Counted from the first letter of the stretch, positions 44,552 through 62,703 are shown. The stretch: 64,000 nt of DNA from a virus (IMGVR_UViG_3300014208_000004:30260-94259), one strand, 5' to 3'. Translations and numbers: made by a program. Notes: a model not told the origin generated them from the sequence alone.

Positions 44552-47500
44552 ATGAATCATATTTTCTTTGCCGAGCCAATCAGCAACGAAAAGATAATAA
44601 AAGGAACAATCCTACACACCACACAGCAACCAAACACACTTCCAGTATTAGCCAGCGAACACGAACACACGACAATAGAAAATAGAACTTATCTTTTAGT
44701 TGATAAACAACCCCTTGAATTTCTAGGTGCAGTCCCGAAAAAAAACTCAGGACTTTCCCGGATATTCAAGTCCATGAACACCATTGTAGAAATTACTGCA
44801 CTCAATGAAGTAATTGAAACAAGTACCAACTGGATACGCAAGGGCATCCAATGCAACAAGGGAATTATCATTAAAGTAGGAAAAGATATTGCAGTTGTAC
44901 GAGATCCAATTGGAAGCATCATTCCTTATAAAATCAGTTCATTACAACCAGTAGAAATACTGGACACCGATGCAATCTTAAAAGCCCATTCCTTTGCAAT
45001 TGAAATACAAAAGGCAATTGCAACAGGCCAGAACTTCCCTGGATTAAATCAGCAAGCAACCGAAGGAACGACCAAACAATTTGGAGTAAATGACACCCGC
45101 CGACTTGGGAGAGGCAAGGACGGTAAACTCAGATGGATGGATGCAGACGAATATGCAAAAGAAGTATCCAGCCGTCAGGGAAAACAACAACCAGCCCAGA
45201 CCACAAGACAATTCAAAGTAGGAGAAACAATTCACTTCAAAGGGGAAGAAGTAAAAGTTATCGATCATTCCGATAAAGTTGTGGCATATAAAAAAGCCGA
45301 TGGAAGCACGGGAACATTCGAAGCGAATTCATACAAGGAAGATTCCGAGGATAAGAACGCCGAGGGCAAAGCAAAAGCAATGACCCTTGGGAACTTCAAT
45401 GCAAAGAAGAAACCCGCCGAGGCCGCAAAAGAATTTGGAGAGAACAAGCCTTCAGCAATCAGCCACGAAGCACCCCCCAACGCATGGTATAAAGAACACC
45501 AACGGATCATTGACACGGAAACGGCAACGCCCGAGTACGAGGAATTTGTCAAGAACGCCGAAGCCAACGGTTACCATAAGAACGGAAACTTTGAGTATTC
45601 CAAAGAAGTGAAATACAAAGATACAGACGGAAATATTTCTATCAATAAGACCCTTGAACTTTCAAAGTTTTACAACACCGAAACAAAGAAAACAGACTTC
45701 AGCATTGATGGAGTGCAGACCAAGGTTACATATGATGGAAAAGAATATGACCTTGCAGATTTAGATGGAAAAGATTTATCTGGAATGACCATCAGAAACG
45801 AAGACGGTATTGAACAGAAAATCAATAAGTATGACTTGGATAAATACCAAGGCAATATCAAAATTGATGAGAATGGGAAAGCAACTATTATCCAGCAAGG
45901 AAAAGATATTGGAGAATTCATTCCAGAAGCAAATATCACTCAGGAGGATTTGCTAAAAGAAGGAACGCTCAAAATTATCGGGGATGAAATTTGGAAGCGA
46001 ACAAAAACCGGAGATGGAGTATCATTCAACGATACACTTCTAGGACGAGTGGATAAAGGCATTGCATTCTACAAACACGGAAACGAAGTGGGAATTGTGT
46101 CCGATGGATATACTACCAACATTGCAAACCGTAACAACGTACGAAGACCCAGCACTCAGGCCGTAAAAGATACCGAGATTCAAAAGCGCATAAGAAAAGA
46201 AACCGCCAAACTAAAAGAAGAAGGTAAATCACGGCAGGACGTTGACAGTGTTAAAGCACGGATCGAAATTGAAAATAGTCCTTCACTGGAAAAGAAGGGC
46301 AAGTCAATTGATACCGCAGACTATGAAGACGTAATCAATACTTTTATTCCCGACAAAGAAACCATAGCGCAAGTTGCGAACAGTTATGGTACGGAAGAAT
46401 GGAAAGCAAATATCAAAGCTCTGGCCGAGCAAATGAAAGTTACGGACGTTCAGAGGGCAAATGAAATTGATGCATTCAATAAAATGAGTAAGAACGGGAT
46501 ATTGAAAGATGCACCACAGGAGAGGAACGCTTCAGAATATCTTGACAGTGCCAAGGAGTTACTTGAGAATAAATATCGGGAATTCAAACGTGAACAGTTA
46601 AACGAAAAAATTTCATCCAGAAAACAAGGGGACACGAAAACAAAATTTGAACGTGGAGAACTTGCAGAGATACCGGTTAATGCAAAAGCCGTCAGTTCTA
46701 AAACAATGCGTATCCGAGATAGTGAAGAAAACACCTATCAAGTAACGTACGCAGTTGTACCAATGAATGATGTAATCCAGAGCCACGAAAGCACGGGAGA
46801 AGAACACGCCGACCACCCCAAGGAACTACAAGCGAGGAACCGTAAGACCGAAGGTTCTAAAAAACAAATGGGAGAAATTGCTTCACAGATTGATGAACGA
46901 GTGACCGAAGATTCAGCCGATGCAAACCGAGGAGCACCAGTTGGATATTCCAAGGATGGGAAAGTTTATATCGCTCAGGGCAACGGACGAACTGCAGGAA
47001 TTAAAGGTTCAACAGGAGATGCACGAGATACATATTTTGGATTGATGGTACGTAAGGCAGCAGAATTGGGAATGCGTACCAAGGACATCCAGCCCACGGA
47101 CATGCTAGTCAGAGTCTTGACACCGAAACACACCTATCAGGATGCAATCACTTTAGGAGCCGACCAAGACACGCCAGCAATGCCATACACAGAAGTAGAA
47201 CGAACTAGGGCTTTCCAAAATAAAAACCCGCAAGGACTTTTAGAGGCAGGACAAAATATTAATATGAAGTCCATTGGCAACAAGCCGATCAATGAAACAA
47301 ATGTTGCAAGTTGGATAAGTGACAACCCGGAAATCTATAAGAAAATACTTGCACAAACAGGAAAGCAACGAGCGCATATTGAAACCAGCCCAAAGTTACA
47401 AAGCGAGGCAATCAATATTGCGATGATGGCACAACTCAAACCAGACTTCATTGATGATATATCGGCACGGGACACCCGCACACACGACCTAGTAAAAACC

Positions 47501-50500
47501 GTCACGCCATCACTAGTAGAAAATCAGAAACTTATTGCTGAAGGAAAACTCCCAGAGAACGCCGACCTACAAAATATTTTTCACAACGTTATCAAAACGT
47601 ATGATTCAATTGACAGCAACACCAAGTCATTGATGAATATTAAAAATGGTCAAAGTGATTTTCTCAATGATGATGAGAACACCGCCGATGCAAACTCCCT
47701 ACTTCATAAAATGAAGCAAGAACATTTGTTCAGCACCACGGGGAAGGAAGAAAGCACATTCAGAGACCCGTTAAAGGTTATCGGAATGATTGCCTACCAA
47801 CAGGCAATGAAGCCACGGGATAACGAAGTAGCACGACAACAAGCATACACACAATACGCACTCAAAACAAAACGATTTGCCGAGGCAATCAAAACCCTAG
47901 ATACAAACCAATCGGATATATTTGGGAGCCAGTTAAACCCAGAGGAGCAAAAGAAAGAGAACAATAAAAAACTTATCCAGATTGCAGAACGAGTATTCCT
48001 TGAAAACAAACCCTACCAATCGGGGACGGAAGAACTATCAGCCGATGAACAAGAAGCAAGCAAAGAGCAATTTGCAAAATTCGATGTATACGGCAAGATG
48101 AAGAAGATCGCTGATAAGTACGGATTCAAACTAGTAGGAGAAGAAGAACCAGAGACGATCCTAAAGTCCATGGTAAACTATTTTCTCAATTATCGCTACA
48201 ACCGGGAAGTGAAAGAAATTCAATCCTTCATTGCGAAAGGGAAGCAACTTGGTCTATTCCCAGCAGTGCCAAAAGCACCAGCAACTCCCAAGGTTCCTTC
48301 AGCGACAAAACCAACCACAGGATTGAACTGGAATAAATCCCAAGGGCAGGAAAAACCAGGGCACAAATATTTACGGAGAGAAAAAGGCAAGAGCGGGAAA
48401 TGGGAATATATTTACGAGGAGCCGACAGGCAGACAATATGCCACGGATGAGAAGGGCACGGAACTTCCAAAGCATCGGAACTGGGAGCAAGGCACGGAAG
48501 TGATCCACAACGGGGAAAAAGTTTCCATCCATGAAATGAGCGATAACATTGTAGCACTCAAGAAAAAGAATGGAGACATCTATACCGCCAATGTGAAAGA
48601 CGTTGATACCTTCCATGGCCGACAGAAGAATTTACGCAAACAGATGACAGGATTGAACGTTTCCAAGCCAACACCAAAATGGGACGAACTCATACTGAAA
48701 TTGAATTCCGATCTTGAACAGGGAAGCAAGTCAGGACAATTTGAATTTGCAGACAACAAAGCGGAGTTAGAACGGAAAATAAAATATGCGGAAGATGAGA
48801 GAAATAAAATTAGACAAAAAGTGTCCAGAGAAGAATCAACGGAGAAGCCCACACCAGTAACCGAAACACCAGCATTTGATAATTCAAAAGATATTACTCT
48901 TTCTCATTTAGCAAACGATCTTAATGAAAAATATAAAATCGCTAAAGACATAGAATTTGAGATGTCTTTTTTTGATTTGCAAGATATAGAAGATGTAAAA
49001 AAAGGTTTTCAGAAAACATCGGAAGTGCTAAAAATTCCAATAAAAAAAGTTGAAGAACTATATTATTCAAGAAAAGAAACACATCAAAAATTAAAGGATA
49101 TAATTGCAAAAGATTTGAATAAAAACTACGGGACTAAACTTAAAAAGACAGATAGTGGTAATTATTATTACAAGTCCTCATTTCTACCACGCAGTGACAA
49201 TAAAATATTTTATAAACTTCTTGATCTACAGCAGAAACTTGCAAATGAAAAATCAAAAAAGTTTCTTAAAAATGAAAACATAAAAGTACAACTCAAAAAT
49301 CTTAAATCTATAGGAACTTCTTCAAAGTCTTCAAACTATTACCAATTTCCATCAGGTAAAACAATAAGAATAAGCGATCATTCCCCTGATGGCTATTGGA
49401 TTACCCAGCCAGGACACTCACATGATTATTATGTTGAAGTAAAATGGAACAGTGATTTGAATAAAGTTAAAGATGAATTATTTGATATATTAAAAACAGA
49501 AAACTTATTTGCTCTGAAGGAAAAAGATATTACAAAATCTTTCTTCCAACGCCTATTCCCAATTCTCAAATCCCAACTCGGAATGTTTGGAGTAAAATCA
49601 ACAAAGGGACTTCCATCAAAACAGAAGAAACAATTTAATCCCGATGTAAAATTTAACGAAGTTCAAGAAGGACAAACAAAGAACTTCAACGCGAACGACA
49701 AGCGAGTATTGAAGCGCGGAGCGTTTGGGAAAATGAGATGGTTCAACGCCGATGCAACGGAAGCACATCAACAAGGACTATTTGACAAGACCAAAACAGT
49801 TGACCACGTAAAGCATCAACAACACGTAGAGGAAGTTTCCCAAAAAATAGAAGACACCCATATAGATTCTCATAGTGGACAAAGCGACTATCAAATGACA
49901 GTTAAGCAAAAAGGTAAGGTTATTGCTAAACTTGAATATTCCGAATTTGAGAAAACTCCACATATTAATATGATTGAAGTATCAAAGGATCATCAGCGAA
50001 AAGGACTTGCTAAAAAACTCATTTACAACCTTCAAAAAAAATATCCCAACAAAACGATTCAATGGGGAATGATGACGGATGAGGGAAGCGCATTGAGAAA
50101 TTCTCTAAAGAAAACTTTTATTCAAAATCCAGAGTATAAAAAGTTAGCGGATGAATTAGAATTGTTAAGAAAAAAACAAAGCGAGATGCAAATACAATTT
50201 GATGACTTTACAGAGAACAGCAAAAATTGGAATAAGGAAGATCGAGAGAAAAAACGTCAAGAATTGCCAGATGATTCTTTTAATGAAATAACGGATAAGA
50301 TTTATGATATTGAAAAACAAATAGAGGATTTATCTGAAGGAGAAGAAATAATTGATACAGAAGAACCAAAACCCGATTTCCCAATGCCAGAACCGAAGGA
50401 GATAGTTGCAAAACCAGTCACAGCAGTCAAACTGAAAAACGGAGAAGTAGTAACAGATGATAAAGCAAAGATTCACGCTCAGATGGAAAATGTAAACTGG

Positions 50501-52213
50501 GATGAAGTTGATACAACTGGATTTGTTATCGGAGGAGAATATAAAGAGAATGGAAAATCCGAACTTGGAGAGCAAGCACGAGCCAAGAAAGAACGTGATG
50601 AAGCGAGAGAAAAGAAAATATCCAAACCAAAAGAATTAACCCTATACCGAGGAGGCAAGAACGGTAATTGGTATACACCCGATAAATCGGCAGCCAAGGA
50701 ATATTCAACATTGGATCAGGATGGAAAACTTGAAAAGAAAAACTTCACTTTCAATAAACTTGCAGAAAAGGAAGATATACTTTCAACAGCCGAGGAATTA
50801 GGATTGACCGATGCAAAAGAACAAGCATTGTATTGGTTAGTAAGTCCAGAAACCTATCATGGAGCCGATAAAATAATATCAGCATTAAAGGAAAAGGGAT
50901 TTGATGCAGTTCACCTACCTATAGGGGAAGATTTTTCACCAGAAGGAAAAGCAATTGAATCTTACATGTTGCTTAAAGATGCAGACCAAGAAAAATCCAA
51001 CGGCATCACAGAGACCGAAGCATTTAAGAAATGGTTCCAAGGTTCCAAGGTAGTAGATGAGAATGGGAAACCATTAAGAGTATTTCATGGAACCACAAAT
51101 AATTTTTCTGAACTTGGATACGATAATCTAAAAGATATTGATGCATTTTGGTTTACCGAAGACTTGAATTATGTGAATAATTTTGCAGGAGAAAAAGAAG
51201 GGTCAAACGTAATGCCAGTTTATCTAAAAATAGAAAATCCTGGAACCCAAGAAGATTTCAATGAGATTAGTAATGAGTATGATGAAAAAGTAAAAAATAT
51301 TATAGATACCGATGATGAAATATCATTCTCGAAAATGGCAAAAGAAAAAGGATTTGACGGATTTATTATAGGACATACATCGGAAAAAGATAAGGTATTT
51401 GTTGCGCTAGATTCAGAACAAATAAAATCAGCGACAGGAAACGCAGGGACATTCGATCCTACAAATCCCGACATTACAAAGTCAATTAATCAGGTTACAG
51501 AATTCATTAAAAACTTATTCCAAGCACGAGAGGAAACAAACACCAATCCAAGCGAAGCACAAAAAGAAGCCGGCAACTACAAAAAGGGTACGGTAACACT
51601 CCACGGATTAGAGATAGCAATCGAAAATCCAAAAGGATCATTCCGAAGCGGGAAAGACCACAACGGCAAAGAGTGGAAAGTGAAGATGACTGCAGACTAT
51701 GGTTACTTCAAAGAGAAGAATGCAGACAGCGTACAGATCAAAGGAAAAGACAAAGATGAAATTGATGTATTCATAGGAAGCGATCCTGAGAGCGAAAAAG
51801 TATTTATCGTTAATCAAATAAACCCAGCGACAAAAGTATTTGACGAGCACAAAGTCATCATTGCAACACCGGACGAAAAGAGAGCACTAAAACTTTATAA
51901 AGGAAGTTACTCCGATGATGCAATAAAACGAATTGGAAGCATTGTAGAAATGGATATGGAAGAATTCAAAGAGTGGCTATACAACGGCGATAAAACAACG
52001 GCAGTAAAACAGAAGAAAGTAAATGCTATGGAAACTCAAGAACATCCAGAAAGTGGTATCATTAAAAAACTTCAATCACAAATTGAAACACTAATGAATA
52101 AAGTCAGCAATCAAGACAAACCCAAAAAAGGACAAACAATTAAAACCGTAACATTCACACGGGATGATAAAGGCAGAATAACAGGAGCCACAATCAAAGA
52201 ACAAAATAAATAG
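44552..52213 (+). CDS. giant polyvalent protein (DdrB-type ParB-like, GNAT, two ART-like and inorganic-pyrophosphatase-like domains)
   Basis: QSH...LQARNR...GAPV...QGNGRT; IEVSKDHQRKGLA; LYRG...WYT; AFKKWFQGSKVVDENGKPLRVFHGT...QIKSATGNAGTFD; QKEAGNYKKG...IENPKGS.RSG...DYGY...IDVF. Confidence 0.85.
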   Translation: MNHIFFAEPISNEKIIKGTILHTTQQPNTLPVLASEHEHTTIENRTYLLVDKQPLEFLGAVPKKNSGLSRIFKSMNTIVEITALNEVIETSTNWIRKGIQCNKGIIIKVGKDIAVVRDPIGSIIPYKISSLQPVEILDTDAILKAHSFAIEIQKAIATGQNFPGLNQQATEGTTKQFGVNDTRRLGRGKDGKLRWMDADEYAKEVSSRQGKQQPAQTTRQFKVGETIHFKGEEVKVIDHSDKVVAYKKADGSTGTFEANSYKEDSEDKNAEGKAKAMTLGNFNAKKKPAEAAKEFGENKPSAISHEAPPNAWYKEHQRIIDTETATPEYEEFVKNAEANGYHKNGNFEYSKEVKYKDTDGNISINKTLELSKFYNTETKKTDFSIDGVQTKVTYDGKEYDLADLDGKDLSGMTIRNEDGIEQKINKYDLDKYQGNIKIDENGKATIIQQGKDIGEFIPEANITQEDLLKEGTLKIIGDEIWKRTKTGDGVSFNDTLLGRVDKGIAFYKHGNEVGIVSDGYTTNIANRNNVRRPSTQAVKDTEIQKRIRKETAKLKEEGKSRQDVDSVKARIEIENSPSLEKKGKSIDTADYEDVINTFIPDKETIAQVANSYGTEEWKANIKALAEQMKVTDVQRANEIDAFNKMSKNGILKDAPQERNASEYLDSAKELLENKYREFKREQLNEKISSRKQGDTKTKFERGELAEIPVNAKAVSSKTMRIRDSEENTYQVTYAVVPMNDVIQSHESTGEEHADHPKELQARNRKTEGSKKQMGEIASQIDERVTEDSADANRGAPVGYSKDGKVYIAQGNGRTAGIKGSTGDARDTYFGLMVRKAAELGMRTKDIQPTDMLVRVLTPKHTYQDAITLGADQDTPAMPYTEVERTRAFQNKNPQGLLEAGQNINMKSIGNKPINETNVASWISDNPEIYKKILAQTGKQRAHIETSPKLQSEAINIAMMAQLKPDFIDDISARDTRTHDLVKTVTPSLVENQKLIAEGKLPENADLQNIFHNVIKTYDSIDSNTKSLMNIKNGQSDFLNDDENTADANSLLHKMKQEHLFSTTGKEESTFRDPLKVIGMIAYQQAMKPRDNEVARQQAYTQYALKTKRFAEAIKTLDTNQSDIFGSQLNPEEQKKENNKKLIQIAERVFLENKPYQSGTEELSADEQEASKEQFAKFDVYGKMKKIADKYGFKLVGEEEPETILKSMVNYFLNYRYNREVKEIQSFIAKGKQLGLFPAVPKAPATPKVPSATKPTTGLNWNKSQGQEKPGHKYLRREKGKSGKWEYIYEEPTGRQYATDEKGTELPKHRNWEQGTEVIHNGEKVSIHEMSDNIVALKKKNGDIYTANVKDVDTFHGRQKNLRKQMTGLNVSKPTPKWDELILKLNSDLEQGSKSGQFEFADNKAELERKIKYAEDERNKIRQKVSREESTEKPTPVTETPAFDNSKDITLSHLANDLNEKYKIAKDIEFEMSFFDLQDIEDVKKGFQKTSEVLKIPIKKVEELYYSRKETHQKLKDIIAKDLNKNYGTKLKKTDSGNYYYKSSFLPRSDNKIFYKLLDLQQKLANEKSKKFLKNENIKVQLKNLKSIGTSSKSSNYYQFPSGKTIRISDHSPDGYWITQPGHSHDYYVEVKWNSDLNKVKDELFDILKTENLFALKEKDITKSFFQRLFPILKSQLGMFGVKSTKGLPSKQKKQFNPDVKFNEVQEGQTKNFNANDKRVLKRGAFGKMRWFNADATEAHQQGLFDKTKTVDHVKHQQHVEEVSQKIEDTHIDSHSGQSDYQMTVKQKGKVIAKLEYSEFEKTPHINMIEVSKDHQRKGLAKKLIYNLQKKYPNKTIQWGMMTDEGSALRNSLKKTFIQNPEYKKLADELELLRKKQSEMQIQFDDFTENSKNWNKEDREKKRQELPDDSFNEITDKIYDIEKQIEDLSEGEEIIDTEEPKPDFPMPEPKEIVAKPVTAVKLKNGEVVTDDKAKIHAQMENVNWDEVDTTGFVIGGEYKENGKSELGEQARAKKERDEAREKKISKPKELTLYRGGKNGNWYTPDKSAAKEYSTLDQDGKLEKKNFTFNKLAEKEDILSTAEELGLTDAKEQALYWLVSPETYHGADKIISALKEKGFDAVHLPIGEDFSPEGKAIESYMLLKDADQEKSNGITETEAFKKWFQGSKVVDENGKPLRVFHGTTNNFSELGYDNLKDIDAFWFTEDLNYVNNFAGEKEGSNVMPVYLKIENPGTQEDFNEISNEYDEKVKNIIDTDDEISFSKMAKEKGFDGFIIGHTSEKDKVFVALDSEQIKSATGNAGTFDPTNPDITKSINQVTEFIKNLFQAREETNTNPSEAQKEAGNYKKGTVTLHGLEIAIENPKGSFRSGKDHNGKEWKVKMTADYGYFKEKNADSVQIKGKDKDEIDVFIGSDPESEKVFIVNQINPATKVFDEHKVIIATPDEKRALKLYKGSYSDDAIKRIGSIVEMDMEEFKEWLYNGDKTTAVKQKKVNAMETQEHPESGIIKKLQSQIETLMNKVSNQDKPKKGQTIKTVTFTRDDKGRITGATIKEQNK

Positions 52214-52227
52214 AAGGAACAACGGTT

Positions 52228-52632
52228 ATGCTAAATTCAAATATTTCTAACATCGCAGCAAACACACAACTTAATGCACTTGCAGTATTAGCCAACAATG
52301 GATATTTGAGAATATACAACGGAGTGCAGCCAGTAAGTGCCGATACTCCAATTTCATCTCAAACATTACTATCAGAACTACGATTAAGTCCAACTGCATT
52401 TGGATCGGCCATCGGAGGAGTATTAACAGCAAACACAATTGTAGATGATACATCGGCAAACAACACGGGGACGGCAACTTGGTTCAGAATATTAAAATCA
52501 GATGGATCAACAGTTTTATTTGACGGTTCAGTAGGATTATCAAATGCAAATTTAGTTATGACTGATGTTGATATCCGAGTAGGATCACGAGTGTCAATAA
52601 ATTCATTCACGTATACACTTCCAAAACACTGA
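52228..52632 (+). CDS. virion structural protein (beta-rich)
   Basis: LRIYNGVQP.SAD, TGTATWFR, DGSVG pattern recurrent in phage structural loci. Confidence 0.65.
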   Translation: MLNSNISNIAANTQLNALAVLANNGYLRIYNGVQPVSADTPISSQTLLSELRLSPTAFGSAIGGVLTANTIVDDTSANNTGTATWFRILKSDGSTVLFDGSVGLSNANLVMTDVDIRVGSRVSINSFTYTLPKH

Positions 52633-52641
52633 GCGTAACAA

Positions 52642-52944
52642 ATGATTAAGCATAAATTCCATAGTGAAATACCAGACTCAACAGACACGACAATAGTAAG
52701 GCCATCCAACTGGAATGATGAACACGATATAACCAACGGGATTGCAACCTTGGATGTAAACGGTACGGCAGTAGTAACAAATACGGAAGTAACCATTGCA
52801 GAAAAAATATTTTTAACACGACAATCGGGAAGAAGCAACATGGCCATTTATGTATCCAGCGTTAATCCCGGAATAGACTTCACAATCACATCTCTAGGTA
52901 CAGCCGATGATGCAGGATTAAATATCGGATGGATAATTGTATAG
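52642..52944 (+). CDS. putative virion protein
   Basis: IKHKF.S..PD.....VRPSNWNDEH motif. Confidence 0.55.
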   Translation: MIKHKFHSEIPDSTDTTIVRPSNWNDEHDITNGIATLDVNGTAVVTNTEVTIAEKIFLTRQSGRSNMAIYVSSVNPGIDFTITSLGTADDAGLNIGWIIV

Positions 52945-52969
52945 CACTAATTTAATCAGGAGCAACAAA

Positions 52970-54850
52970 ATGAAAAAAATCTTATTCCTTACACTGCTAT
53001 TTACTTCTTTATCATTCTCACAATGGACAAGAGGTACAGGGGCACAGGCAAACGAAGTCTATCTATTCAGAGGGACGGACTCATTAGTCATCGGAAATTA
53101 TATCTGGAATGGAGCAAGACTTGACTCCACACACATGAATATATTTACAGCCTATAAAAATCAAGACAACACATTTACGGGTATAAATACTCTCGGAGGT
53201 TTAACAAAGTTTGGTTCGCATAGTTACGGATTTAGTGCAACGATACAATTATGGGACGAACATTCACTTTCATATAAAAACATAGGACATGATTTAATAA
53301 CAGGAAAATTAAATTTTAATTCAGATACAATTTCACTTGCAACTTGGCAGGGGACAAAAATTGATACAGCCTATTTGAGTTCATCAATTGCTGTTAAAGC
53401 TGATTCCGCAATCGTAGCCCCTGGTCTTGGAATAAACGTAAGTTATGCCTTGCATACCGTAACACCAAACGCAGATACAACAAAGATACCATTCAAAAAT
53501 GCTATAGGTATCTGGGATGCTTCACAGTATCATACAGCGAGAGATTATTTTAGCAGTTTTAATGTAGATACAATTAGGGGGAGGACTCAAGCTGTATTTA
53601 TTAACGATACTCTAAAATTGTTAAACGATAGATTTGTTTACTTCGGAGGAGTAAAATCTTTATTTACAAATTCAAGCAATACACAGTTCGGATATTCGGC
53701 TGGTGGATTAACTTCGGGTGGGACAGCAAATGCTTTATTCGGCTCCTATGCTGGTTATCACATTACGTCTGCACACGATAATGTTTTAATTGGAGCTAAC
53801 GCAGGTTATATGCTTGATACATCCAATACAAATGTGTTTATAGGTAAGTCCGCAGGGTATTATACTATAAATGCAGAAAATACGATGGTTGGTCATAATT
53901 CTGGTTTTAACAATGTTGACGGACACGGTAATGTATTTATTGGAAAATATTCTGGATATGGTGACTCAACTGGCTATGCAAACGTTGAAATTGGAAAAGA
54001 ATCTGGAATGAACAACAAGCAGGGAATTAGTAACATTTATCTTGGCTATCGCTCTGGGTATTGGAGAACAGATTCAAATAAATTATGGATTGGAAACAGT
54101 AATACTGCTATGCCAATACTGTTTGGCGACATTTCAAATGGAAGATTATCAATTAACGATACAACGAATACGAGTTACAATCTATACGTAAATGGAACTC
54201 AATATACGAGTGATTCTTCTAATTTCGGTGGTAATATAATTGTAAATGCAGGAAACACTGCTACAATAACTTTAGATGGAACGGTTGGCACGGAAAGAGT
54301 TGGGACGCAGTCTATTTGGACGCAGGGTGGTGGACTATATTCTTCGTCTCGCGGTAACATACGATTTGGGATTGATAACGATGGTAATTCAACGGCGGCA
54401 AGTTTTGATATTTACTCAAATGGACTTGGAAGTGCTGGAACTGGCGGAAATTTACTTTTCTCTGCAAATGAAAATACTGGCGCGACAATTAGATTAAAAG
54501 GGACAACAAATACTGCTGTGGTGATGCAGATTGAACGGTCTGCATCTACGACACCTGTAATTAAATTTGATTCAACGGGGCTTGGGACACTTGTTAATTT
54601 GACCACAACAGGTCTTTCAACATTCGGAACAAACGGGGGAACAACAACAATACCTTCTGGTGGTATTGCAAAGGTATATGTGTCAGGATTGACAACTTCG
54701 GGTAAGGTAGCTATCTCTGTGAACAAAGGTTCATTTGTTACGCTTGCGGTTGCAGATACAATACCGAGTTGGAATATCCCTTCAACCGATACACTGTATA
54801 TTCGCTATAAATACAATGAAGTAGTTTCTTATGCGATAATGAAAAAATAA
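52970..54850 (+). CDS. fibre/adhesin-like protein with signal peptide and 14-aa NxxxG beta-roll repeats
   Basis: MKKILFLTLLFTSLSFS-Q; repeats NALFGSYAG, NVLIGANAG, NVFIGKSAG, NTMVGHNSG, NIYLGYRSG; AGGAG SD. Confidence 0.7.
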   Translation: MKKILFLTLLFTSLSFSQWTRGTGAQANEVYLFRGTDSLVIGNYIWNGARLDSTHMNIFTAYKNQDNTFTGINTLGGLTKFGSHSYGFSATIQLWDEHSLSYKNIGHDLITGKLNFNSDTISLATWQGTKIDTAYLSSSIAVKADSAIVAPGLGINVSYALHTVTPNADTTKIPFKNAIGIWDASQYHTARDYFSSFNVDTIRGRTQAVFINDTLKLLNDRFVYFGGVKSLFTNSSNTQFGYSAGGLTSGGTANALFGSYAGYHITSAHDNVLIGANAGYMLDTSNTNVFIGKSAGYYTINAENTMVGHNSGFNNVDGHGNVFIGKYSGYGDSTGYANVEIGKESGMNNKQGISNIYLGYRSGYWRTDSNKLWIGNSNTAMPILFGDISNGRLSINDTTNTSYNLYVNGTQYTSDSSNFGGNIIVNAGNTATITLDGTVGTERVGTQSIWTQGGGLYSSSRGNIRFGIDNDGNSTAASFDIYSNGLGSAGTGGNLLFSANENTGATIRLKGTTNTAVVMQIERSASTTPVIKFDSTGLGTLVNLTTTGLSTFGTNGGTTTIPSGGIAKVYVSGLTTSGKVAISVNKGSFVTLAVADTIPSWNIPSTDTLYIRYKYNEVVSYAIMKK

Positions 54851-56018
54851 TGAAAAAACTATTCTACACCATTCTATTGGCTTCAACGCTATGCTCTTGT
54901 GCTTCACAAGTGCAGATTGAAAAGCCATTGAATGATAAACAAAGTATGCAACAGCATCAATGACTGGATTTCTAAAATATTCAGACTTCTCAATATTCAG
55001 TTCTAAGATAGGTGGAAGCGGAACAACAAATACTTTTCCAATGTTTACGGGAACTTCAACACTCGGTAATTCAGGACTCTCCCAAACCTCTGGTGGTGAT
55101 GAGATAGTAGCTAATGACTCATTGAAAGTAGGTGCAAGTGGAACGGGAGTGTTAAGGGCAGGGGCAACAACATTGTCGGGTGCTCTTAGTCTTGGTTCAA
55201 ATACAATCACAACAACAGGCGCAGGTTCTCTTGGTTCTTTAACGCTTACATCAACCGTGCAAATCAATAGTAGCACACCAACATTAAATCTTAATTCGAC
55301 AACAGAATTTAATCAAACAGCATTGAATTTTTATTCGAATAGTTTTTTACAGTGGCAAACCTTAAAGAGAACAACAACAAAACAATGGGGAATTTATAAT
55401 AACCGTCTATCAACGTATGCAGTTTTGATTGATACGGCAGATAATAAAATGACACTAACAGGTGGATTAGTTGGAACAACAGGAGTTTTTGCTTCAAGAG
55501 GCGTAGTTGGATTATTAGTAGGTAACGTTGATTTAGGCGGAACAGTATCAAATAGATCGGTGATAAATTTATCGTCTTCAAATGAGTTATCAATATTCAA
55601 GATAGGACAATCAACTACTGCTTTCGGTCAGCATATTTGGCGATACAATGCAACAGAAGCATCGGCATACCTTGATATTCAATCGAATAAGGGTTTAGCA
55701 TTGAATGTTAATAGTTCTGGCGCAGTTCCATCGTCGGCAACTGACTTAGCAATTGGAGCGACAACAATTACAACGACAGCAAGTTTATCTTCTGGCTTAA
55801 TTACTTCGCACAATAATATTGTAAGTGATTCATCCTTTACTATCAATGAACGCACGACAACACCAACATATCCGACATCCAATACACAAATGCGCTCGTA
55901 TATGAAAAGTGATAAAATAATTTGGGTTATCAATTCAGCCGGAACGCCAAGATTTTATTATTTCGATGCAACATTAACAGCAGATCAACAAATTAAATAT
56001 TCAGCAACAGCACCATAA
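54850..56018 (+). CDS. second fibre-like protein whose lipoprotein-type leader (54850-54963) is out of frame with the body (about 54939-56018)
   Basis: MKKLFYTILLASTLCSC lipobox coupled by TAATG; Gly/Ser/Thr-rich body frame open from 54939. Confidence 0.55.
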
Positions 56019-56021
56019 TTT

Positions 56022-56387
56022 ATGCAAACAGCCTTTCAACAAAATGCTTTTCAGGATAATGCGTTTCAGATTCAGGTATTCCGGGGATCGATTGAAATTA
56101 TTTCAGCCCCAGAAACATCGGATGCAATAGGAGAAGTATTTAATCAGACAGACCAAGGGGATATAGGTGCATATCATAGAGAATGGAAAGAACTTCAAAA
56201 AGAAATTAAAGGAAGAATTGAAGTAACTGCAGAACGTTCACAAATAAAGGCAGCGGGGAAAATAACTCCAGTAATGCGAGGGAGTATAAATGCAACAGGA
56301 TCAATAGGGAAAGTTGTTGCTGAAGGATATTGCGATGAAAGCGATGAGGACATTATGCAACTTGTTCTACAATTAGCGGAGATGTAG
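56022..56387 (+). CDS. phage protein with AFQxNAFQxNAFQ N-terminus
   Basis: MQTAFQQNAFQDNAFQ; acidic C-terminus DEDIMQLVL. Confidence 0.6.
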   Translation: MQTAFQQNAFQDNAFQIQVFRGSIEIISAPETSDAIGEVFNQTDQGDIGAYHREWKELQKEIKGRIEVTAERSQIKAAGKITPVMRGSINATGSIGKVVAEGYCDESDEDIMQLVLQLAEM

Positions 56388-56519
56388 ATGACTAAGAATG
56401 ACCGAGCAAAACGACAGATACAAAAATTTGTAGCAACCAAGAAACGTCAGGCATTCGGCAACAAGCGACAAATCAAAGGACTGATTAAACTCAGTAAACT
56501 CCAACGAGGTATGAAATGA
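56388..56519 (+). CDS. small basic protein (43 aa)
   Basis: Hand-translated MTKNDRAKRQIQK...; coupled on both sides. Confidence 0.45.
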   Translation: MTKNDRAKRQIQKFVATKKRQAFGNKRQIKGLIKLSKLQRGMK

Positions 56520-59500
56520 ATTTCTTCCAAAGACTATTCCGCAAATCACAACTTGACATGTTCACAGCGTCAACACCGAAGAAAACAACAGGGCTAAACT
56601 TTGACAAACCAAAGACCGATAAAGAAGCGCGAATAGGAGACTTGAAAAGTGAGAACGGAAAGTATTACATATTTCTTGAAACTACAATTGGGAAACCACG
56701 ATGGCATACACACGCCGAGTTACACCAGATGGCAAAAGAAGGGAAACCGATACCGGAGATAGCGAAGAAGAAAATTCCATCACTGAAAAAGGTTGAAGAA
56801 GATAAATCAAAAGAACCGATTGCAAAACACGGAGATAAAATTCGTTTTACCGATGATGAACATAAAGCGGAATGGATTGTTCAAAATTCACAAATTAACA
56901 AAGAAGGTAAAAGGGAATACGAAATAAAATACGATAACGGTGAGAAAGGAAAAGATCATACCATCTTTAAGACTTGGGTAGAACAAGATGACATTACATC
57001 TATCAATGGTAAAAACTTAAATCAAAAAGAAAAAGAAGCATACGAATTATCAGTTGATGAATATATTAATAAACTTAACAGTTCAAGAATTCCTAATGGA
57101 TTAACACCAATCAGTAAAAACAAAAATGATAAGTCTTATCAACTTGCAAAGAACTCACATAAGATCAGAACACAGCAAGCTATATCTGAGGGCAAAGAAG
57201 TTTCACCAAAAGCAATTAATGACCACGAGGATATAAAAAAAATTGAAGATGCTAAATCTTCATTATTTAGTCAGAGCAATAAAGAAAAAGCCGATCCATT
57301 ATCCGAAGCCGTTAATAAAAAAGTCAACGATAAAAAAAATCAAGAAGAAAGAAACCATAGGGTATTTGTCGTTCATAAGAGCAACAAGCCAACCACGGAA
57401 CATGAGAACTTGACCGAAGAAGAAGCAAAACAAATTTACGAGAAATATAAAACCGATGCAGATTCAGAGATCACAACATGGAATAAAAGCATTTATAACG
57501 ACCATGGGAAAGTAACTTCAATTCCTACGGTTAAAATGCATGTCAATAAAACAAAAGAAGAACCAGCCGAACCCCAGGAGAAGAAAGAATATAAATTTAC
57601 AACAACCAATGAATTCCTTAAATCAAAAGGATTAACGGAAGCCACAGCAAAAAAACTATCAATTGATAGAAAAGTAGAACTTTCAAAAGAATATGAACAG
57701 TTACAAAACAATGAAAGCAAATCAGCTCAGGAAGAATTCAAACAAAAATCACTTGAAGAAAAAGAGCAACGCCGATTAGAACAGGAAAAAAACAACAAGC
57801 AATTTGAAGATCAATTACAGATGGATGAAAAAGACCAAAGCATTGAAGACCGTATTGATGCAAAAATAAATGATAAACGTCCATTGACCCCAGAAGAACA
57901 AAAGTTTTTTGATGAAAACCAATACGCACCAACTGGATTCAAATATGACTCTCAGGGGAACCTTATCAAACAGGAAACGACACCAGCCGAACCCAAACAC
58001 AAAGAATTAGAAGATAATTCTTTTGATTCGTTATCAGAAGATGCAAAACAAAGAGCATATAAAGACTATAAAAAAAATTCTACCAACGCTGATACATTTG
58101 AAGGATTCTCTCAAGCAATGAAGGGAGTAGAATTTAATAAAGATGGTACCGTCATAGAACCCGAACACAAAGTAGGTGACACGAAACAAGAAGACGGCCA
58201 CACATACCGACTCAATGAAAACCATCGATGGGAAAGAGTGGATGAAGACAAAAAAGAAGAACATCCAACATTTGAAGTAGGGGAGAAAGCAACATTTACC
58301 AGCAAGGATGGAAAAGAGTATGAAGTAAATTTCCGTGGATACAACGGGGATAAAGCCGTCATTGTAGGAAAGCCAAAAGACAAAATAGATCAAATGGAAG
58401 TTGATATATCTCAGTTAAAAAAAATAGCAAAAGAGGAATCGAAACCAGAACCAACCGAACCAAAGCAAGAAGAAAATCAATTCGATGCAAAAGCATTGAA
58501 AGAAAAACTATTATCATTAAAACCAAAATTGAAGTTCCTAAATGCAGATGAACGTAAAGCAATGGAGAAACTTGCTGAAAGAACATCCAGCGCAAAGAAC
58601 TCTCAAGAGAAGTTGGAAGTAGCAAAAGATATTGATGCATTCCTTACCGCAATTGATAAGAACATCGAAGACAAAGCCCAACGGGATAGAATGGTCAATC
58701 CAACCCTACACGCAAAGAAGGAAGATATTCATACAATAGTTGAACAGAAATTGGACGAGAAACAAGAAAATAAATCCTTCAAAGATGCAGGTAAAAGAGT
58801 AGGGGGATCAAAAAAGGAAATGGCAGCAATCAGGGCTATTACTTCAACAGACCTTGACAACATGGACAATGCAACAGCTTTCAAAGTTGTAACCAAGGAC
58901 AGGATACTCCCAGACATTGACGTAGAGCAACGGCGATTAGACGGAGAAGATGCAGGGCTAGTATTCCTAAAGAAAAAACTCCACGAGGCAGTAAGTGCAA
59001 AGCCAGCCAATAATCCTGAAGCACGAAAAGCATACGTAGAACTTATTCCAAAACTATTTGAGAAAATTGATGCAGCCAAGTCCATAGATGAAATAGATGA
59101 TATTGGACGAAACACTTTTGAACGATTATATTCATACCGAGGAGGAAACAAAGTATTTTTAATCGGCAGTAAAGATACCGTAGTAGAAGATTATCTGGGG
59201 AAAACATTCCTTAATCTGATTGCTAAGAATACAGATTCAGCAGCAGAAAATTGGAGCAAAGCAATTTTATACGATGCATTCCCAGAAAAACTATCCAGAG
59301 AAAAATACGAAAAATATATAGAGGCTAGAACCAATAACATTAAAGAAACAAAAGAGCGACTTGCAACACGTACCCCGGAAGAATGGGAACGAGAAACGAA
59401 AGATGATTACATGGTAAAATATACCTTCAACGGTAATCAGTTGAATAAAATGAAAAAAGAAGAACCGGATAAATACGCAAAACTTATCCAGGATCATAAG

Positions 59501-60727
59501 GATAGGGTATACAAAAAATTAGATAACAGTCTTCTTTCATTTGAGAACTGGATTAAAGACAGACCACGTTATGCACCACGACAATCCGACTGGACATGGA
59601 ACGAAAAGAAAGAACGGCAAGCAACCGATAGAGCACAAGGAGAAATGAAGATACACGACAATCCACCCCTTGCATATATTAAGCGAGTGAACGGTAGAGA
59701 AGTTAAAAATTCAGATGTAACACCAGAGGCAATCAAAAATAATTTGGGATTCAACTCTGTACAATTTGGAAACTATGTAAAAGATGAAGAAGCCAAAGAG
59801 CATGTAAAACATTTCATTGCAAGCATCTATGATTTAGAAGATGCACTTGGAATAGATATGACAAAAATAAATAAGATGGGTAATCTATCCATGGCATTTG
59901 GAGCACGGTGGAGCGGAAAAGCAGGAGCGCATTATGAATCAATGGCAAAGATTATTAATCTCACAAAAACAAACGGCGATGGAGCAGTAGCACATGAATT
60001 TCATCACTACTTTGACCATCTCTTTGCGGGAATGAAAGAAACAGGTACACGGGACAATATGTTTTTATCGCATCAAAAATCCAACGATACACCAATTGGT
60101 AAAGCGATGAATAAAGTCATGGATGCAATTTATAAAGGGGACTATGTAGAAGAAAAAGTATTTGAACCAGACGGGAAACATTCTTATCCATCGATAAAAA
60201 GAACGTACGACCAAAAAGGATTGCAGGGAGCAATTGAAGAAATAAAACGCTATAGGTTCAACGCTGATTATTATAAATATCTTGCAAAACTAGAGGGGAA
60301 GCCAATTACAATTCCAATCGGAACAAGCACAACAAGATTTAATAAGAACGCACAAAATTTTAAGAGCGACTATTGGAGCCGTCCATTAGAATTATTTGCA
60401 CGAGCAACGGAATCATTTATCCAGGACAAGTTAGAAGAAAAAGGGATGTACAACAATTATCTTGTCAGTGGAAACGATGTAACAAAACCAGATGGAAAAT
60501 GGGATGCAGTATCATTGGGATTAACATATCCCCAGGGAGAAGAACGAAAGAAGATCAACGCAGCGATTGATGAACTTTGGAAAGTAGCAATCAAAGAATT
60601 AAATATTGGACAGGATAAACCAAAGGAAGGAAAACGAGTAACATCGGAAGTGAAGATTGAAAAGTCATTCAATGCCACAATTCATATATTCAATTTATCA
60701 AAACGATTTACATTCAACGGACGATAA
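56516..60727 (+). CDS. large polyvalent protein with zincin-like HExxH and LPD1-like domains
   Basis: DAGKRVGGSKKE, GFNSVQFGNYV, AFGAR, AGAHYE, AHEFHHYFDH, YWSRPLELFARATESFI, YPQGEERKKI. Confidence 0.82.
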   Translation: MNFFQRLFRKSQLDMFTASTPKKTTGLNFDKPKTDKEARIGDLKSENGKYYIFLETTIGKPRWHTHAELHQMAKEGKPIPEIAKKKIPSLKKVEEDKSKEPIAKHGDKIRFTDDEHKAEWIVQNSQINKEGKREYEIKYDNGEKGKDHTIFKTWVEQDDITSINGKNLNQKEKEAYELSVDEYINKLNSSRIPNGLTPISKNKNDKSYQLAKNSHKIRTQQAISEGKEVSPKAINDHEDIKKIEDAKSSLFSQSNKEKADPLSEAVNKKVNDKKNQEERNHRVFVVHKSNKPTTEHENLTEEEAKQIYEKYKTDADSEITTWNKSIYNDHGKVTSIPTVKMHVNKTKEEPAEPQEKKEYKFTTTNEFLKSKGLTEATAKKLSIDRKVELSKEYEQLQNNESKSAQEEFKQKSLEEKEQRRLEQEKNNKQFEDQLQMDEKDQSIEDRIDAKINDKRPLTPEEQKFFDENQYAPTGFKYDSQGNLIKQETTPAEPKHKELEDNSFDSLSEDAKQRAYKDYKKNSTNADTFEGFSQAMKGVEFNKDGTVIEPEHKVGDTKQEDGHTYRLNENHRWERVDEDKKEEHPTFEVGEKATFTSKDGKEYEVNFRGYNGDKAVIVGKPKDKIDQMEVDISQLKKIAKEESKPEPTEPKQEENQFDAKALKEKLLSLKPKLKFLNADERKAMEKLAERTSSAKNSQEKLEVAKDIDAFLTAIDKNIEDKAQRDRMVNPTLHAKKEDIHTIVEQKLDEKQENKSFKDAGKRVGGSKKEMAAIRAITSTDLDNMDNATAFKVVTKDRILPDIDVEQRRLDGEDAGLVFLKKKLHEAVSAKPANNPEARKAYVELIPKLFEKIDAAKSIDEIDDIGRNTFERLYSYRGGNKVFLIGSKDTVVEDYLGKTFLNLIAKNTDSAAENWSKAILYDAFPEKLSREKYEKYIEARTNNIKETKERLATRTPEEWERETKDDYMVKYTFNGNQLNKMKKEEPDKYAKLIQDHKDRVYKKLDNSLLSFENWIKDRPRYAPRQSDWTWNEKKERQATDRAQGEMKIHDNPPLAYIKRVNGREVKNSDVTPEAIKNNLGFNSVQFGNYVKDEEAKEHVKHFIASIYDLEDALGIDMTKINKMGNLSMAFGARWSGKAGAHYESMAKIINLTKTNGDGAVAHEFHHYFDHLFAGMKETGTRDNMFLSHQKSNDTPIGKAMNKVMDAIYKGDYVEEKVFEPDGKHSYPSIKRTYDQKGLQGAIEEIKRYRFNADYYKYLAKLEGKPITIPIGTSTTRFNKNAQNFKSDYWSRPLELFARATESFIQDKLEEKGMYNNYLVSGNDVTKPDGKWDAVSLGLTYPQGEERKKINAAIDELWKVAIKELNIGQDKPKEGKRVTSEVKIEKSFNATIHIFNLSKRFTFNGR

Positions 60728-60729
60728 CT

Positions 60730-61092
60730 ATGGCTAAGCGTAATGAAAAAGAATTCAATCAAAACTTCAACGAGATCCAATCGATCATTGAAAAGTATGT
60801 TCCCGGAGGAGTAGAAGCCCAAGCATTACTACTCCACGAAATAAATAAAAGCATCAATAAGGATGATATAGGCAGGGTATATCTTAATCAATACGCACTT
60901 GCCATGAGAAGGTTATCCATCAGTAAGTCATTCAAAGGAGATAACATCAAAGAATTATCTGAAAAATTTGACGTTTCCGAACAGACGATCCGAAACGATG
61001 TTAAGGAGCATTATGCAACCCAGATAAAAAAGTCAAAAGTTAAGGGCTTAAACTTTATCGGAATAAGAAAAAGCCTGGAATGTCAAGAATAG
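60730..61092 (+). CDS. HTH protein (Mor-like regulator candidate)
   Basis: FKGDNIKELSEKFDVSEQTIRNDV; RVYL. Confidence 0.6.
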   Translation: MAKRNEKEFNQNFNEIQSIIEKYVPGGVEAQALLLHEINKSINKDDIGRVYLNQYALAMRRLSISKSFKGDNIKELSEKFDVSEQTIRNDVKEHYATQIKKSKVKGLNFIGIRKSLECQE

Positions 61093-61179
61093 GAATTATT
61101 AAAAACTAACCTAATTTCTATAATTCCAACATTGTATTTTTGTTCTGTAAGTTTTACCACAAACACAATCTTTGAGACA

Positions 61180-62703
61180 ATGCAAAATACCCCGTTCAAA
61201 ATTTTTGGAAACGTAGAAATAATCAAAGCCGTATCTTCAAATCCATTGGATGGATTTAGGATCAGAGGAGTAGTTTTACGTAAAGCAAAAGATGAACAAG
61301 GTGAGACTCCAATGATGGACAAGATGGACTGGAGTTATTTTGATAAAACTCAAAACTTACTTTACGAACACAAACCCGCAACAATCACAATTGACAAATC
61401 GAAGAACACAACTTCAATCACTGCAAACGTCCCAGAGCCGGAAGATTATATCGGCAAAGTATTAAGCCGTACACGCAGTGCCGATGGAGCAAATGAAATC
61501 ATTGAAGCCCAACTGTACCCGAGCAATAAGAAAGCTCAGGACATTGTTAAGATGATGAAAGATATTGAACTCATTAACAAACAATATCCGAAGCAACAGA
61601 AGACAATTGGATTTTCAATTGAGGCAGTCCCGATCCAAAAAACTGTAAATGGAAAATATGCAGACAAGAACGGGAATTACGCCGGCAAAGTTATCAGCAT
61701 TGTAGTTTCACCAACACCGCAAGATGCAGGGACATACGCAGAAATAATGGAACACGAAAATAATAAAATTGCAAAATCATTGAGTGCAGGGTATGATGTT
61801 AATCCAGCGACAATGACAGACGGAGAAGCATTAAAGAAAGAAAGTTTAATAAGTAATAAAAAATCACAAACCAAAGGAGTAAGAACCATGCGTAAATACA
61901 AATCTATCCAAGATGCACATACCGAGTGCATTACAAAAGGCATGAAAGGTAAAGAAGCACAAGACGAAGCGACACGCTTGTGGAATGCACAATTGGCAGA
62001 AGAAGCCAATACGGTTACCGGATCAATTGAAAAGGGAATCGATGCAGCACTTTCTTTCATCAAAAAATCTTTTGAGCCGATCAATGCATTACTTGCCCGG
62101 ACATCGGAAGTTGAAACAAGTCTTATCCGAGCAGACATTGAAATCAAAAAATCTTTTGCGAATTACGAAGCATCAACAGAAGATCAGCCATTTGACGGCG
62201 GAGCAGCCGTTGTAGCAATTCAAAAAAGTGTCTACGGACTGCAGACCGAACAAAACATCAGCAACCAATCAATTGCAAAAGCGATGATTGCACAATCAGA
62301 AGCAATGCAAGAACTTTTTGGAATTGTAAAAAGTATGGCAACACAACTTTCAACAATCCAGGGTACCAGCGATGATACCATTAACCGTGTAACCGCAATC
62401 ATGCAGGGAGTTAAAAAATCTGTAGCAGGATCGACCACCGACCCAGCAGTATTGCGAACTCTTTCAGTTGATTCAAAACAAACTGAACTGAATGAAACAG
62501 ACCGGATTATCAAAGGCATTCCAGTAAAACGGATTGAACGATTCCTTGTAGACCGGGGGGAACAACTCGGACGAGAACAAGGTGCTGCATATTTCACTGC
62601 ACAGCAAAACTTTAAGGTGCAAGGATTGTCAGCAATCAACAAAGGGATGAGAAAAGAAATTGCTGATGCACTTGGAAGTTTTTCGTACGCAGTAGAAAAC
62701 TAG
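61180..62703 (+). CDS. prohead protease fused to scaffolding protein
   Basis: RIRGV....KDEQGE..MDWSYF...YEH, IGFSIE, VSPTP; helical C-half with many xxKS motifs; in-frame internal ATG 61888 with AAGGAG SD. Confidence 0.85.
   Translation: MQNTPFKIFGNVEIIKAVSSNPLDGFRIRGVVLRKAKDEQGETPMMDKMDWSYFDKTQNLLYEHKPATITIDKSKNTTSITANVPEPEDYIGKVLSRTRSADGANEIIEAQLYPSNKKAQDIVKMMKDIELINKQYPKQQKTIGFSIEAVPIQKTVNGKYADKNGNYAGKVISIVVSPTPQDAGTYAEIMEHENNKIAKSLSAGYDVNPATMTDGEALKKESLISNKKSQTKGVRTMRKYKSIQDAHTECITKGMKGKEAQDEATRLWNAQLAEEANTVTGSIEKGIDAALSFIKKSFEPINALLARTSEVETSLIRADIEIKKSFANYEASTEDQPFDGGAAVVAIQKSVYGLQTEQNISNQSIAKAMIAQSEAMQELFGIVKSMATQLSTIQGTSDDTINRVTAIMQGVKKSVAGSTTDPAVLRTLSVDSKQTELNETDRIIKGIPVKRIERFLVDRGEQLGREQGAAYFTAQQNFKVQGLSAINKGMRKEIADALGSFSYAVEN

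Follow-up and report, generated by a model that had tools for sequence, protein, structure and literature searches.

Are the giant multidomain proteins of phages delivered whole, or are they cut into separate enzymes inside the capsid? Polyvalent proteins of this kind are widespread in phages and conjugative elements, and their packaging and cutting are largely unknown. The question is posed by a stretch of 64,000 nucleotides from an uncultured phage (IMGVR_UViG_3300014208_000004:30260-94259; we call this whole stretch the window and count nucleotide positions from its first letter), which encodes two giants of 2553 and 1403 amino acids (aa) as well as a prohead protease and the major capsid protein. 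A prediction made from the sequence alone, referred to here as the original prediction, held that the giants are internal head proteins, punctuated by prohead-protease-type sites of the form [ILFV]-x-K-[SAG] and cut there into separate modules for delivery with the DNA. Read as a claim of enrichment, this punctuation by protease sites does not hold up. It survives positionally for about half of the sites in the 2553-aa protein, which lie at module junctions, where a short leader carrying protease-type sites is reused. A junction leader that matches the site of the resident prohead protease amounts to a specific and testable processing model for a polyvalent protein.

Two giants with the features of polyvalent proteins

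With their disparate enzymatic domains and their place beside virion genes, both giants fit the description of polyvalent proteins given by Iyer et al. 2017 (PMC5512222). Pfam recognizes ddrB-ParB (aa 725-856), GNAT (1755-1835), ART-PolyVal (2169-2301) and InPase (2335-2476) in the 2553-aa protein. The 1403-aa protein has an Arg-Trp mini-domain at about aa 41-64 and a zincin motif, HEFHH (aa 1160), which lies 120 residues before an LPD1 domain (Pfam, aa 1283-1356). Two ARTs had been proposed; Pfam passes only one, and extra Pfam scans of the unannotated segments gave no further domain. A sequence search of the PDB returned nothing for the 1403-aa protein or for a 637-aa protein. Lysine makes up 12.5-14% of the giants. 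In the structure model, aa 184-257 of the 2553-aa protein (window 45100-45330) are predicted to form a beta-hairpin mini-domain followed by a small barrel resembling SH3 or KOW folds.

The phage collection contained no close relative of this uncultured phage, single-protein queries of viral contigs found none either, and the relatives used below were recovered by profile-based scans. In four lineages, namely this phage and the relatives labelled L004, L008 and L009, the giants are encoded just ahead of the protease-scaffold and the capsid protein. A distant one, L009, comes from a 90.6-kb contig whose protease and capsid protein are 28% and 22% identical to those of the window; there the genes for two giants, of 1860 and 2824 aa, are flanked by those for the portal and the protease-scaffold.

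The resident prohead protease and its specificity

The 523-aa product encoded just before the capsid gene had been read as a prohead protease, and this reading is borne out: it is of the SPO1 type and fused to a scaffold (hhalign 97.3%, E = 2e-11 to SPO1 gp3.2). Its N-terminal 230 residues align with the SPO1 gp3.2 head maturation protease and, weakly, with a Bacillus phage procapsid protease, and the remainder is predicted to consist of long, scaffold-like helices; together, these two features identify the gene as a protease-scaffold fusion. The gene caller places its start 16 codons downstream (507 aa). A PDB sequence search with the protein gave only a non-significant match (E = 0.94).

The sites in this protein are far more numerous than its composition predicts. 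About nine had been reported; the count is 14, against 2.5 expected (P = 5e-7). Counts in the proteins of this genome were compared with the composition expectation and with 2000 shuffles, and the null model is well calibrated, given that the remaining genome holds 82 sites where 78.7 are expected. The sites are also conserved, being kept in homologues of 71% and 34% identity while the surrounding sequence drifts. The same excess is found in the protease-scaffolds of L004 (11 observed, 2.5 expected), L008 (13 and 2.8) and L009 (19 and 2.7, P = 1e-10), and in Bacillus phage SPO1 both the scaffold (11 and 1.3) and the protease (8 and 1.6) exceed expectation.

The capsid protein is about 27% identical to capsid proteins of SPO1-like phages (tblastn) and matches the solved SPO1 Gp6.1 (PDB 9vel, E = 1e-23). 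By sequence comparison, the head genes are thus distantly related to those of SPO1/Twort-type phages (Herelleviridae). The motif occurs twice in the capsid protein. The proposed maturation site, IRK↓A (the arrow marks a predicted cut), aligns with VVK↓S of the 463-aa phi812 capsid protein (PDB), and the 439-aa capsid-protein chain 9row_B in the PDB begins exactly one residue past the predicted cut. The chain start and the alignment indirectly support a predicted cut of the capsid protein after Lys. Literature searches found no readable statement of a Lys/Ser maturation site in A511 or Twort, for which such a site had been taken as established.

Taken together, the conserved scaffold excess in the relatives and the site in the capsid protein point to a lineage-wide specificity for hydrophobic-x-Lys↓Ser/Ala. 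Such an excess in a scaffold would be a simple way to read the specificity of a prohead protease from sequence alone.

A stretch of about 30 residues after the IAK↓S of the protease (61768-61860) is homologous to the start of the mature capsid protein (62865-62960), both reading K↓S/A-L-x-x-G-Y...E-S-L. SPO1 gp3.2 and gp6.1 show the same pairing, with a mimic of the capsid N-arm after a Lys↓Ser site of the protease. This shared stretch explains why one protease-annotated PHROG family matches both the protease and the capsid protein. A 265-aa open reading frame at 43729-44526, which shares the peptide IGFSIE, was considered as a protease paralogue and ruled out (hhalign 8.6%).

Site counts in the giants

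Are the giants enriched in the same motif? Every site named by the original prediction lies where it had been placed (Table 1), and the list was selective: the 2553-aa protein contains seven further matches to [ILFV]-x-K-[SAG] (44594, 44834, 46049, 47048, 48266, 48995 and 51893) and the 1403-aa protein four. With all of them counted, the 2553-aa protein has 15 sites where 12.1 are expected (P = 0.24) and the 1403-aa protein six where 6.4 are expected (P = 0.6), so that the check which the original prediction had set for itself, enrichment of the motif, finds none overall in the giants. Narrower forms of the motif, derived from the scaffold sites, do show an excess in the 2553-aa protein, both as I-x-K-[SAG] (10 observed, 3.95 expected, P = 0.0075) and as a five-residue motif (8 and 2.8, P = 0.008); they show none in the 1403-aa protein. 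An 11-column weight matrix built from the scaffold sites, which overfits, gave no significant excess in the giants.

The 120-aa helix-turn-helix (HTH) protein encoded between the giants and the protease has four sites where 0.7 are expected (P = 0.005; P = 6e-6 for the narrower I-x-K-S). L004 and L008 share just one of these four, which lies near residue 40 and precedes the HTH.

Sites concentrate at module junctions

The position of the sites tells more than their number. Four junction segments of the 2553-aa protein, delimited on grounds other than the motif (aa 128-170, 1187-1238, 1653-1680 and 2302-2334, 156 aa in all), contain 14 of its 319 lysines and seven of its 15 sites (hypergeometric P = 3e-7, a value that overstates independence because three of the four segments are homologous copies, and one to be read knowing that the segments were drawn after the sites had been seen). 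Decoy motifs placed 2 of 100 sites in the same segments. The original prediction had located its sites at apparent domain boundaries, and this stands for seven of the eight that it listed in this protein; the other, IFKS at 44762, lies in a beta-strand of the N-terminal beta domain, which is modelled with fair confidence. For motif sites away from the junctions, chance is the likeliest origin.

The junctions are also places where related giants differ. The L004 orthologue is collinear with the 2553-aa protein up to aa 1238, and the block at aa 1187-1429 matches residues 1897-2101 of L004, which begin with a leader of L004's own. In L008 the orthologue stops about 90 residues past the counterpart of the element at aa 1203. 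Another orthologue, P0005, diverges in or before the 1420s (the collinear match is reported to 1470, its last 50 or so residues being visibly unrelated); its similarity returns at aa 1653 and is lost past about 1760-1840. This coincidence of module swaps and gene ends with leaders supports the view that the leaders act as cut signals at junctions.

At the fourth junction, ITK↓S (aa 2308) falls between the Pfam end of the ART (2301) and the start of InPase (2335), in the linker that closes the ART-PolyVal domain and reads G-x-F-D-P...D-I-T-K↓S. This linker is conserved as G-x-F-D-P-x-x-P-D-I-x-x-S/A (51446-51484; P0007-P0056; L007, which is F116 gp60) and comes in two variants. Among the proteins fetched, Thr-Lys stands before Ser, Ala or Gly in this lineage, L009 included, and Arg-Phe or Leu-Phe takes its place elsewhere, for example in gp60 of Pseudomonas phage F116.

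A leader reused within and between giants

What occupies the other three junctions is a recurring element. It is seen most plainly at the start of the 1403-aa protein, whose first 17 residues comprise a hydrophobic peptide ending in F-R-K↓S (a 10-residue leader) and then QLDMF. These residues recur at aa 1663-1680 of the 2553-aa protein, immediately past ITK↓S, where the order at junction 3 is ITK↓S, a short hydrophobic peptide, ILK↓S and QLGMF. Two further copies in the 2553-aa protein are found at aa 1203-1235, with QLGLF, and, in degenerate form, at aa 142-158. Junction 2 reads ILK↓S, IAK↓G followed by QLGLF, VPK↓A and then a Pro-rich linker; junction 1 is a helix with ILK↓A and IQK↓A, set between the N-terminal beta domain and a first Arg-Trp mini-domain (aa 171-200). 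The mini-domain follows three of the four leader copies (the 1403-aa N-terminus, aa 142-158 and aa 1660-1680). The Q-L-x-L/M-F peptides (QLGLF 48245-48259, QLGMF 49574-49588, QLDMF 56549-56563) begin 0-2 residues past the Lys↓Ser/Gly of the leader; they are conserved in most homologues and absent from L009.

A profile of leader plus mini-domain, run against 1.84 billion cluster representatives, matched 23 proteins, mostly of 600-2500 aa. In about 13 of the 23 the element is at the extreme N-terminus, and the extension before Lys↓Ser ranges from about 10 to 40 residues. Across seven orthologues of the 1403-aa protein (22-51% identity), Lys10-Ser11-Gln12 is invariant. The same family (seven proteins, the distant L009 among them) keeps a hydrophobic-x-Lys↓Ser 6-22 residues from the C-terminus, here IEK↓S at aa 1381.

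Leaders resembling the 1403-aa N-terminus are also present in L004 and L009. In the L009 giants the junctions run D-I-T-K↓S, a six-residue hydrophobic peptide and then K↓S, and this short peptide, closed by K↓S or K↓A and with no Q-L-x-L-F after it, is also the N-terminus of three L009 proteins. Since the L009 leaders lack Q-L-x-L-F, the double Lys↓Ser design reaches further than that peptide. In all, the double-site design was found in four lineages.

The public gene call of the 1403-aa protein (P0048, 1389 aa) starts at Met15, at 56558 instead of 56516, and loses the conserved leader. We favour the upstream start because the orthologues open with the same 14 residues. Outside the giants, the SPO1 portal (L003 816-2339) starts M-D-F-F-E-S-L-S-K↓A, resembling the 1403-aa leader M-N-F-F-Q-R-L-F-R-K↓S. 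The resemblance hints at a broader use of such leaders, which may label head-internal proteins across the lineage.

A processing model and its alternatives

We propose that the leaders are capsid-targeting and cleavage signals like those of T4, and that the giants are cut by the prohead protease, a reading that we regard as evenly balanced between right and wrong. The protease would cut after Lys in a hydrophobic-x-Lys↓Ser/Ala/Gly context, degrading its own fused scaffold at about a dozen sites and trimming about 41 residues off the capsid protein. The giants would be built as cassettes, each opening with a reused leader: a protease-type site, some 7-25 hydrophobic residues, another protease-type site, usually Q-L-x-L/M-F, and then a linker. 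Like the T4 or P1 signal, an N-terminal leader would carry its protein into the procapsid, where the prohead protease would then cut it off. If the copies at internal junctions were cut likewise, the giant would be a polyprotein, and the 2553-aa chain would split into some four or five pieces that leave with the DNA, namely the N-terminal beta domain, a ParB-containing block, one or more middle modules, a GNAT-ART block and the pyrophosphatase. Such cutting of the giants into separate enzymes inside the capsid is plausible but unproven. The sequences themselves show which domains are present, the conserved excess of sites in the scaffold, where the junctions lie, the homology of the leaders and a conserved order of genes; capsid packaging, cleavage and the identity of the cutting protease are what we infer. 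If the model is right, it would explain the shuffling of cassettes between giants, leader and module moving together, and the leader might serve as a short tag with which foreign proteins are loaded into the capsids of SPO1/Twort-type phages.

Could the element at the junctions be something that is never cut? It may be a docking or structural module whose clamp-like Q-L-x-L/M-F, together with the Arg-Trp and KOW-like mini-domains, anchors the enzymes to the replisome or to DNA, the likeness to Lys-Ser protease sites being a coincidence. The form Q-[LM]-x-[LMI]-[FL] does follow Lys-Ser/Ala in most copies found, and the peptides resemble the published QL[SD]LF-type consensus for binding the bacterial beta sliding clamp. 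Three proteins (P0006, P0058 and P0067) keep the Q..LF part without Lys-Ser/Ala directly before it, and the best PDB matches of the model of aa 1-330 are arrays of KOW/Tudor-type barrels (Spt5, NusG), with low template modelling scores. What speaks for cutting instead is L009, where junctions and N-termini alike retain the double hydrophobic-x-Lys↓Ser in the absence of Q-L-x-L-F. Docking also leaves unexplained the upstream Lys↓Ser, the N-terminal extensions that vary and yet end at Lys↓Ser, and the conserved C-terminal site. We consider docking without cleavage a rather unlikely account. The two functions are compatible, because cleavage would create a new N-terminus that carries the clamp-like peptide. 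A combined scheme, in which each cargo module keeps its own targeting leader, is cut on both sides in the procapsid and is then directed to the host sliding clamp by its new Ser-Gln-Leu-x-Leu-Phe N-terminus, strikes us as unlikely. Were it true, the Thr-Lys and Arg-Phe variants of the ART linker would represent junctions evolving to fit the resident protease.

The giants may also be cut at their junctions by another enzyme, either the zincin-like metallopeptidase of the 1403-aa protein or a host protease. The HEFHH motif precedes LPD1 in a region that matches PHROG families of other large phage proteins, and the passages of PMC5512222 that treat processing argue for autoproteolysis by a zincin peptidase. 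The G-x-F-D-P...D-I-x-x-S/A linker of the ART occurs in other contexts too, with Arg-Phe or Leu-Phe replacing Thr-Lys. Against this, the junction sites share their motif with the scaffold, where its excess was established independently, and with the predicted maturation site of the capsid protein in these phages. The linker itself carries Thr-Lys in this lineage, including L009 with its Lys↓Ser-rich scaffold, and Arg-Phe or Leu-Phe elsewhere (F116), again among the proteins fetched. On balance, a different cutting enzyme seems quite unlikely. A last reading dispenses with cutting altogether: the sites would be chance occurrences in Lys-rich proteins, and the giants ordinary intracellular or packaged proteins that stay whole. 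It draws on the agreement of both giants' counts with composition, on the 26 of the 90 proteins of the genome that have a motif site in their first 45 residues, and on the giant sites that fall inside folded domains. It is at odds with the concentration of sites in the junction segments, the invariance of Lys-Ser-Gln in the leader across the seven orthologues and the recurrence of the double-site design in four lineages, and we hold it to be improbable.

Several observations weigh against cleavage of the giants by the prohead protease, to which the flat overall counts, the weight matrix and the two reservations about the junction P value, all given above, also belong. Mapped onto the AlphaFold model, the expectation that sites avoid folded regions is upheld by the helix at aa 142-158, which lies between domains, and contradicted by IFKS (aa 71), which sits in a compact beta domain. 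Two sites absent from the original list lie inside Pfam domains, at aa 833 in ddrB-ParB and aa 2448 in InPase. The model of aa 1-330 is itself of low to moderate confidence (mean predicted local distance difference test score, pLDDT, of 64; 73-90 in the N-terminal domain), and that of the protease-scaffold (mean pLDDT 50) was too poor for a structure search. In the collinear region, aa 1-1240, conservation is marginal: 4-5 of 10 sites are kept, where decoys reach about 20% (P = 0.04-0.2). Most leader sites have Gln next to the Ser, a position that is hydrophobic in most scaffold sites. Pfam scans gave neither a MuF nor a portal-binding domain, and 25 kb separate the portal gene from the giants in this genome.

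Comparison with known systems

For polyvalent proteins, Iyer et al. 2017 predict packaging, injection and processing, the last by a zincin peptidase of their own, in the passages that deal with their fate (PMC5512222). The giants described here are like those proteins in uniting several unrelated enzymatic domains in one chain and in their location beside virion genes; those passages assign processing to the zincin, and describe no reused junction leader that matches the motif of a resident prohead protease.

In phage T4, the internal proteins and Alt carry a capsid-targeting sequence that the gp21 prohead protease removes (PMC3012670), and DarB of phage P1 has a 30-residue N-terminal packaging signal (PMC9024508). 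The likeness lies in a short N-terminal leader on diverse anti-defence cargo, and the 1403-aa protein has, as T4 substrates do, an N-terminal leader ending at a protease consensus site, here F-R-K↓S. The T4 and P1 signals show no sequence homology to the leader of the giants, and T4 cuts after Glu, whereas this lineage is predicted to cut after Lys. Furthermore, the T4 or P1 signal is single and N-terminal, whereas the putative leader seen here is repeated inside one polypeptide.

The closest experimental precedent is phage SPN3US, whose prohead protease cuts head and ejection proteins at several sites (PMC10052503). In phiKZ and SPN3US (PMC10052503, PMC7411985), as proposed here, one prohead protease acts on many head-internal proteins, including ejected ones, at a short consensus site. 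These phages differ in the lineage of capsid and protease and in the motif, their substrates are not arrays of polyvalent enzymes, and their sites were mapped by mass spectrometry.

Nearest in sequence is the head module of SPO1 (Herelleviridae), gp3.2/gp3.3/gp6.1, with a homologous protease and capsid protein, the same site excess and the same N-arm mimic. Protease and scaffold are fused here and are separate genes in SPO1, and identities are about 24-27%. In the 9 kb of the SPO1 head region that were examined, the genes for portal, protease, scaffold and capsid protein stand side by side and no giant intervenes. Polyvalent proteins, leaders for capsid targeting and substrates of prohead proteases are all known; what appears to be new is that a protease-type leader is used again where modules meet.

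Genome setting

The window covers bases 30260-94259 of a single contig of 94,259 bp. An exact 123-bp repeat at both contig ends (genome 1-123 and 94137-94259) indicates that the genome is circular and complete at about 94 kb. The capsid gene, encoding 486 aa, spans the contig junction, running from the end of the window into the start of the contig. The + strand carries almost all of the genes, and promoter and terminator scans were uninformative. The features of the locus are collected in Table 1.

Table 1. Coordinates of the giants, their junctions and the adjoining head genes (nucleotides of the window)
Feature	Position	Strand	Basis or content	Sites named by the original prediction
2553-aa polyvalent protein	44552..52213	+	Pfam; orthologues P0005, L004 and L005 have swapped C-terminal modules	IFKS 44762, ILKA 44975, IQKA 45005, ILKS 48158, IAKG 48230, ITKS 49529, ILKS 49562, ITKS 51473
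Junction 1, aa 142-158	44975..45025	+	AlphaFold model; leader profile match at aa 142-214	
Junction 2, aa 1203-1242	48158..48277	+	Collinearity with L004 breaks at aa 1187-1238	
Junction 3, aa 1660-1680	49529..49591	+	P0005 match restarts at aa 1653; homologous to the 1403-aa protein N-terminus	
Junction 4, aa 2299-2311	51446..51484	+	Pfam limits: linker between ART and InPase	
1403-aa polyvalent protein	56516..60727	+	Leader, Arg-Trp mini-domain, zincin HEFHH, LPD1	FRKS 56537, IEKS 60656
120-aa Mor-like HTH protein	60730..61092	+	Four I-x-K-S sites	
Protease-scaffold fusion, 523 aa	61132..62703	+	14 motif sites	
Protease-scaffold layout			Protease at about aa 21-205; capsid N-arm mimic after IAK↓S at aa 213-243; helical scaffold at aa 259-480	
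Major capsid protein, 486 aa	62751..64000, on across the circular junction	+	Predicted maturation site IRK↓A, nt 62865-62876	IRKA 62865

The portal (17466-19241) and large terminase (5578-7353) genes both lie far upstream. Directly after the large-terminase gene, with a 4-nt overlap, stands a gene for a homing endonuclease of the GIY-YIG/HNH type (window 5578-8156 for the pair). Downstream of the capsid gene, a 202-aa protein (genome 5605-6213, 24 kb before the window) contains three I-x-K-S sites (P = 0.0007) and may be a further substrate of the protease.

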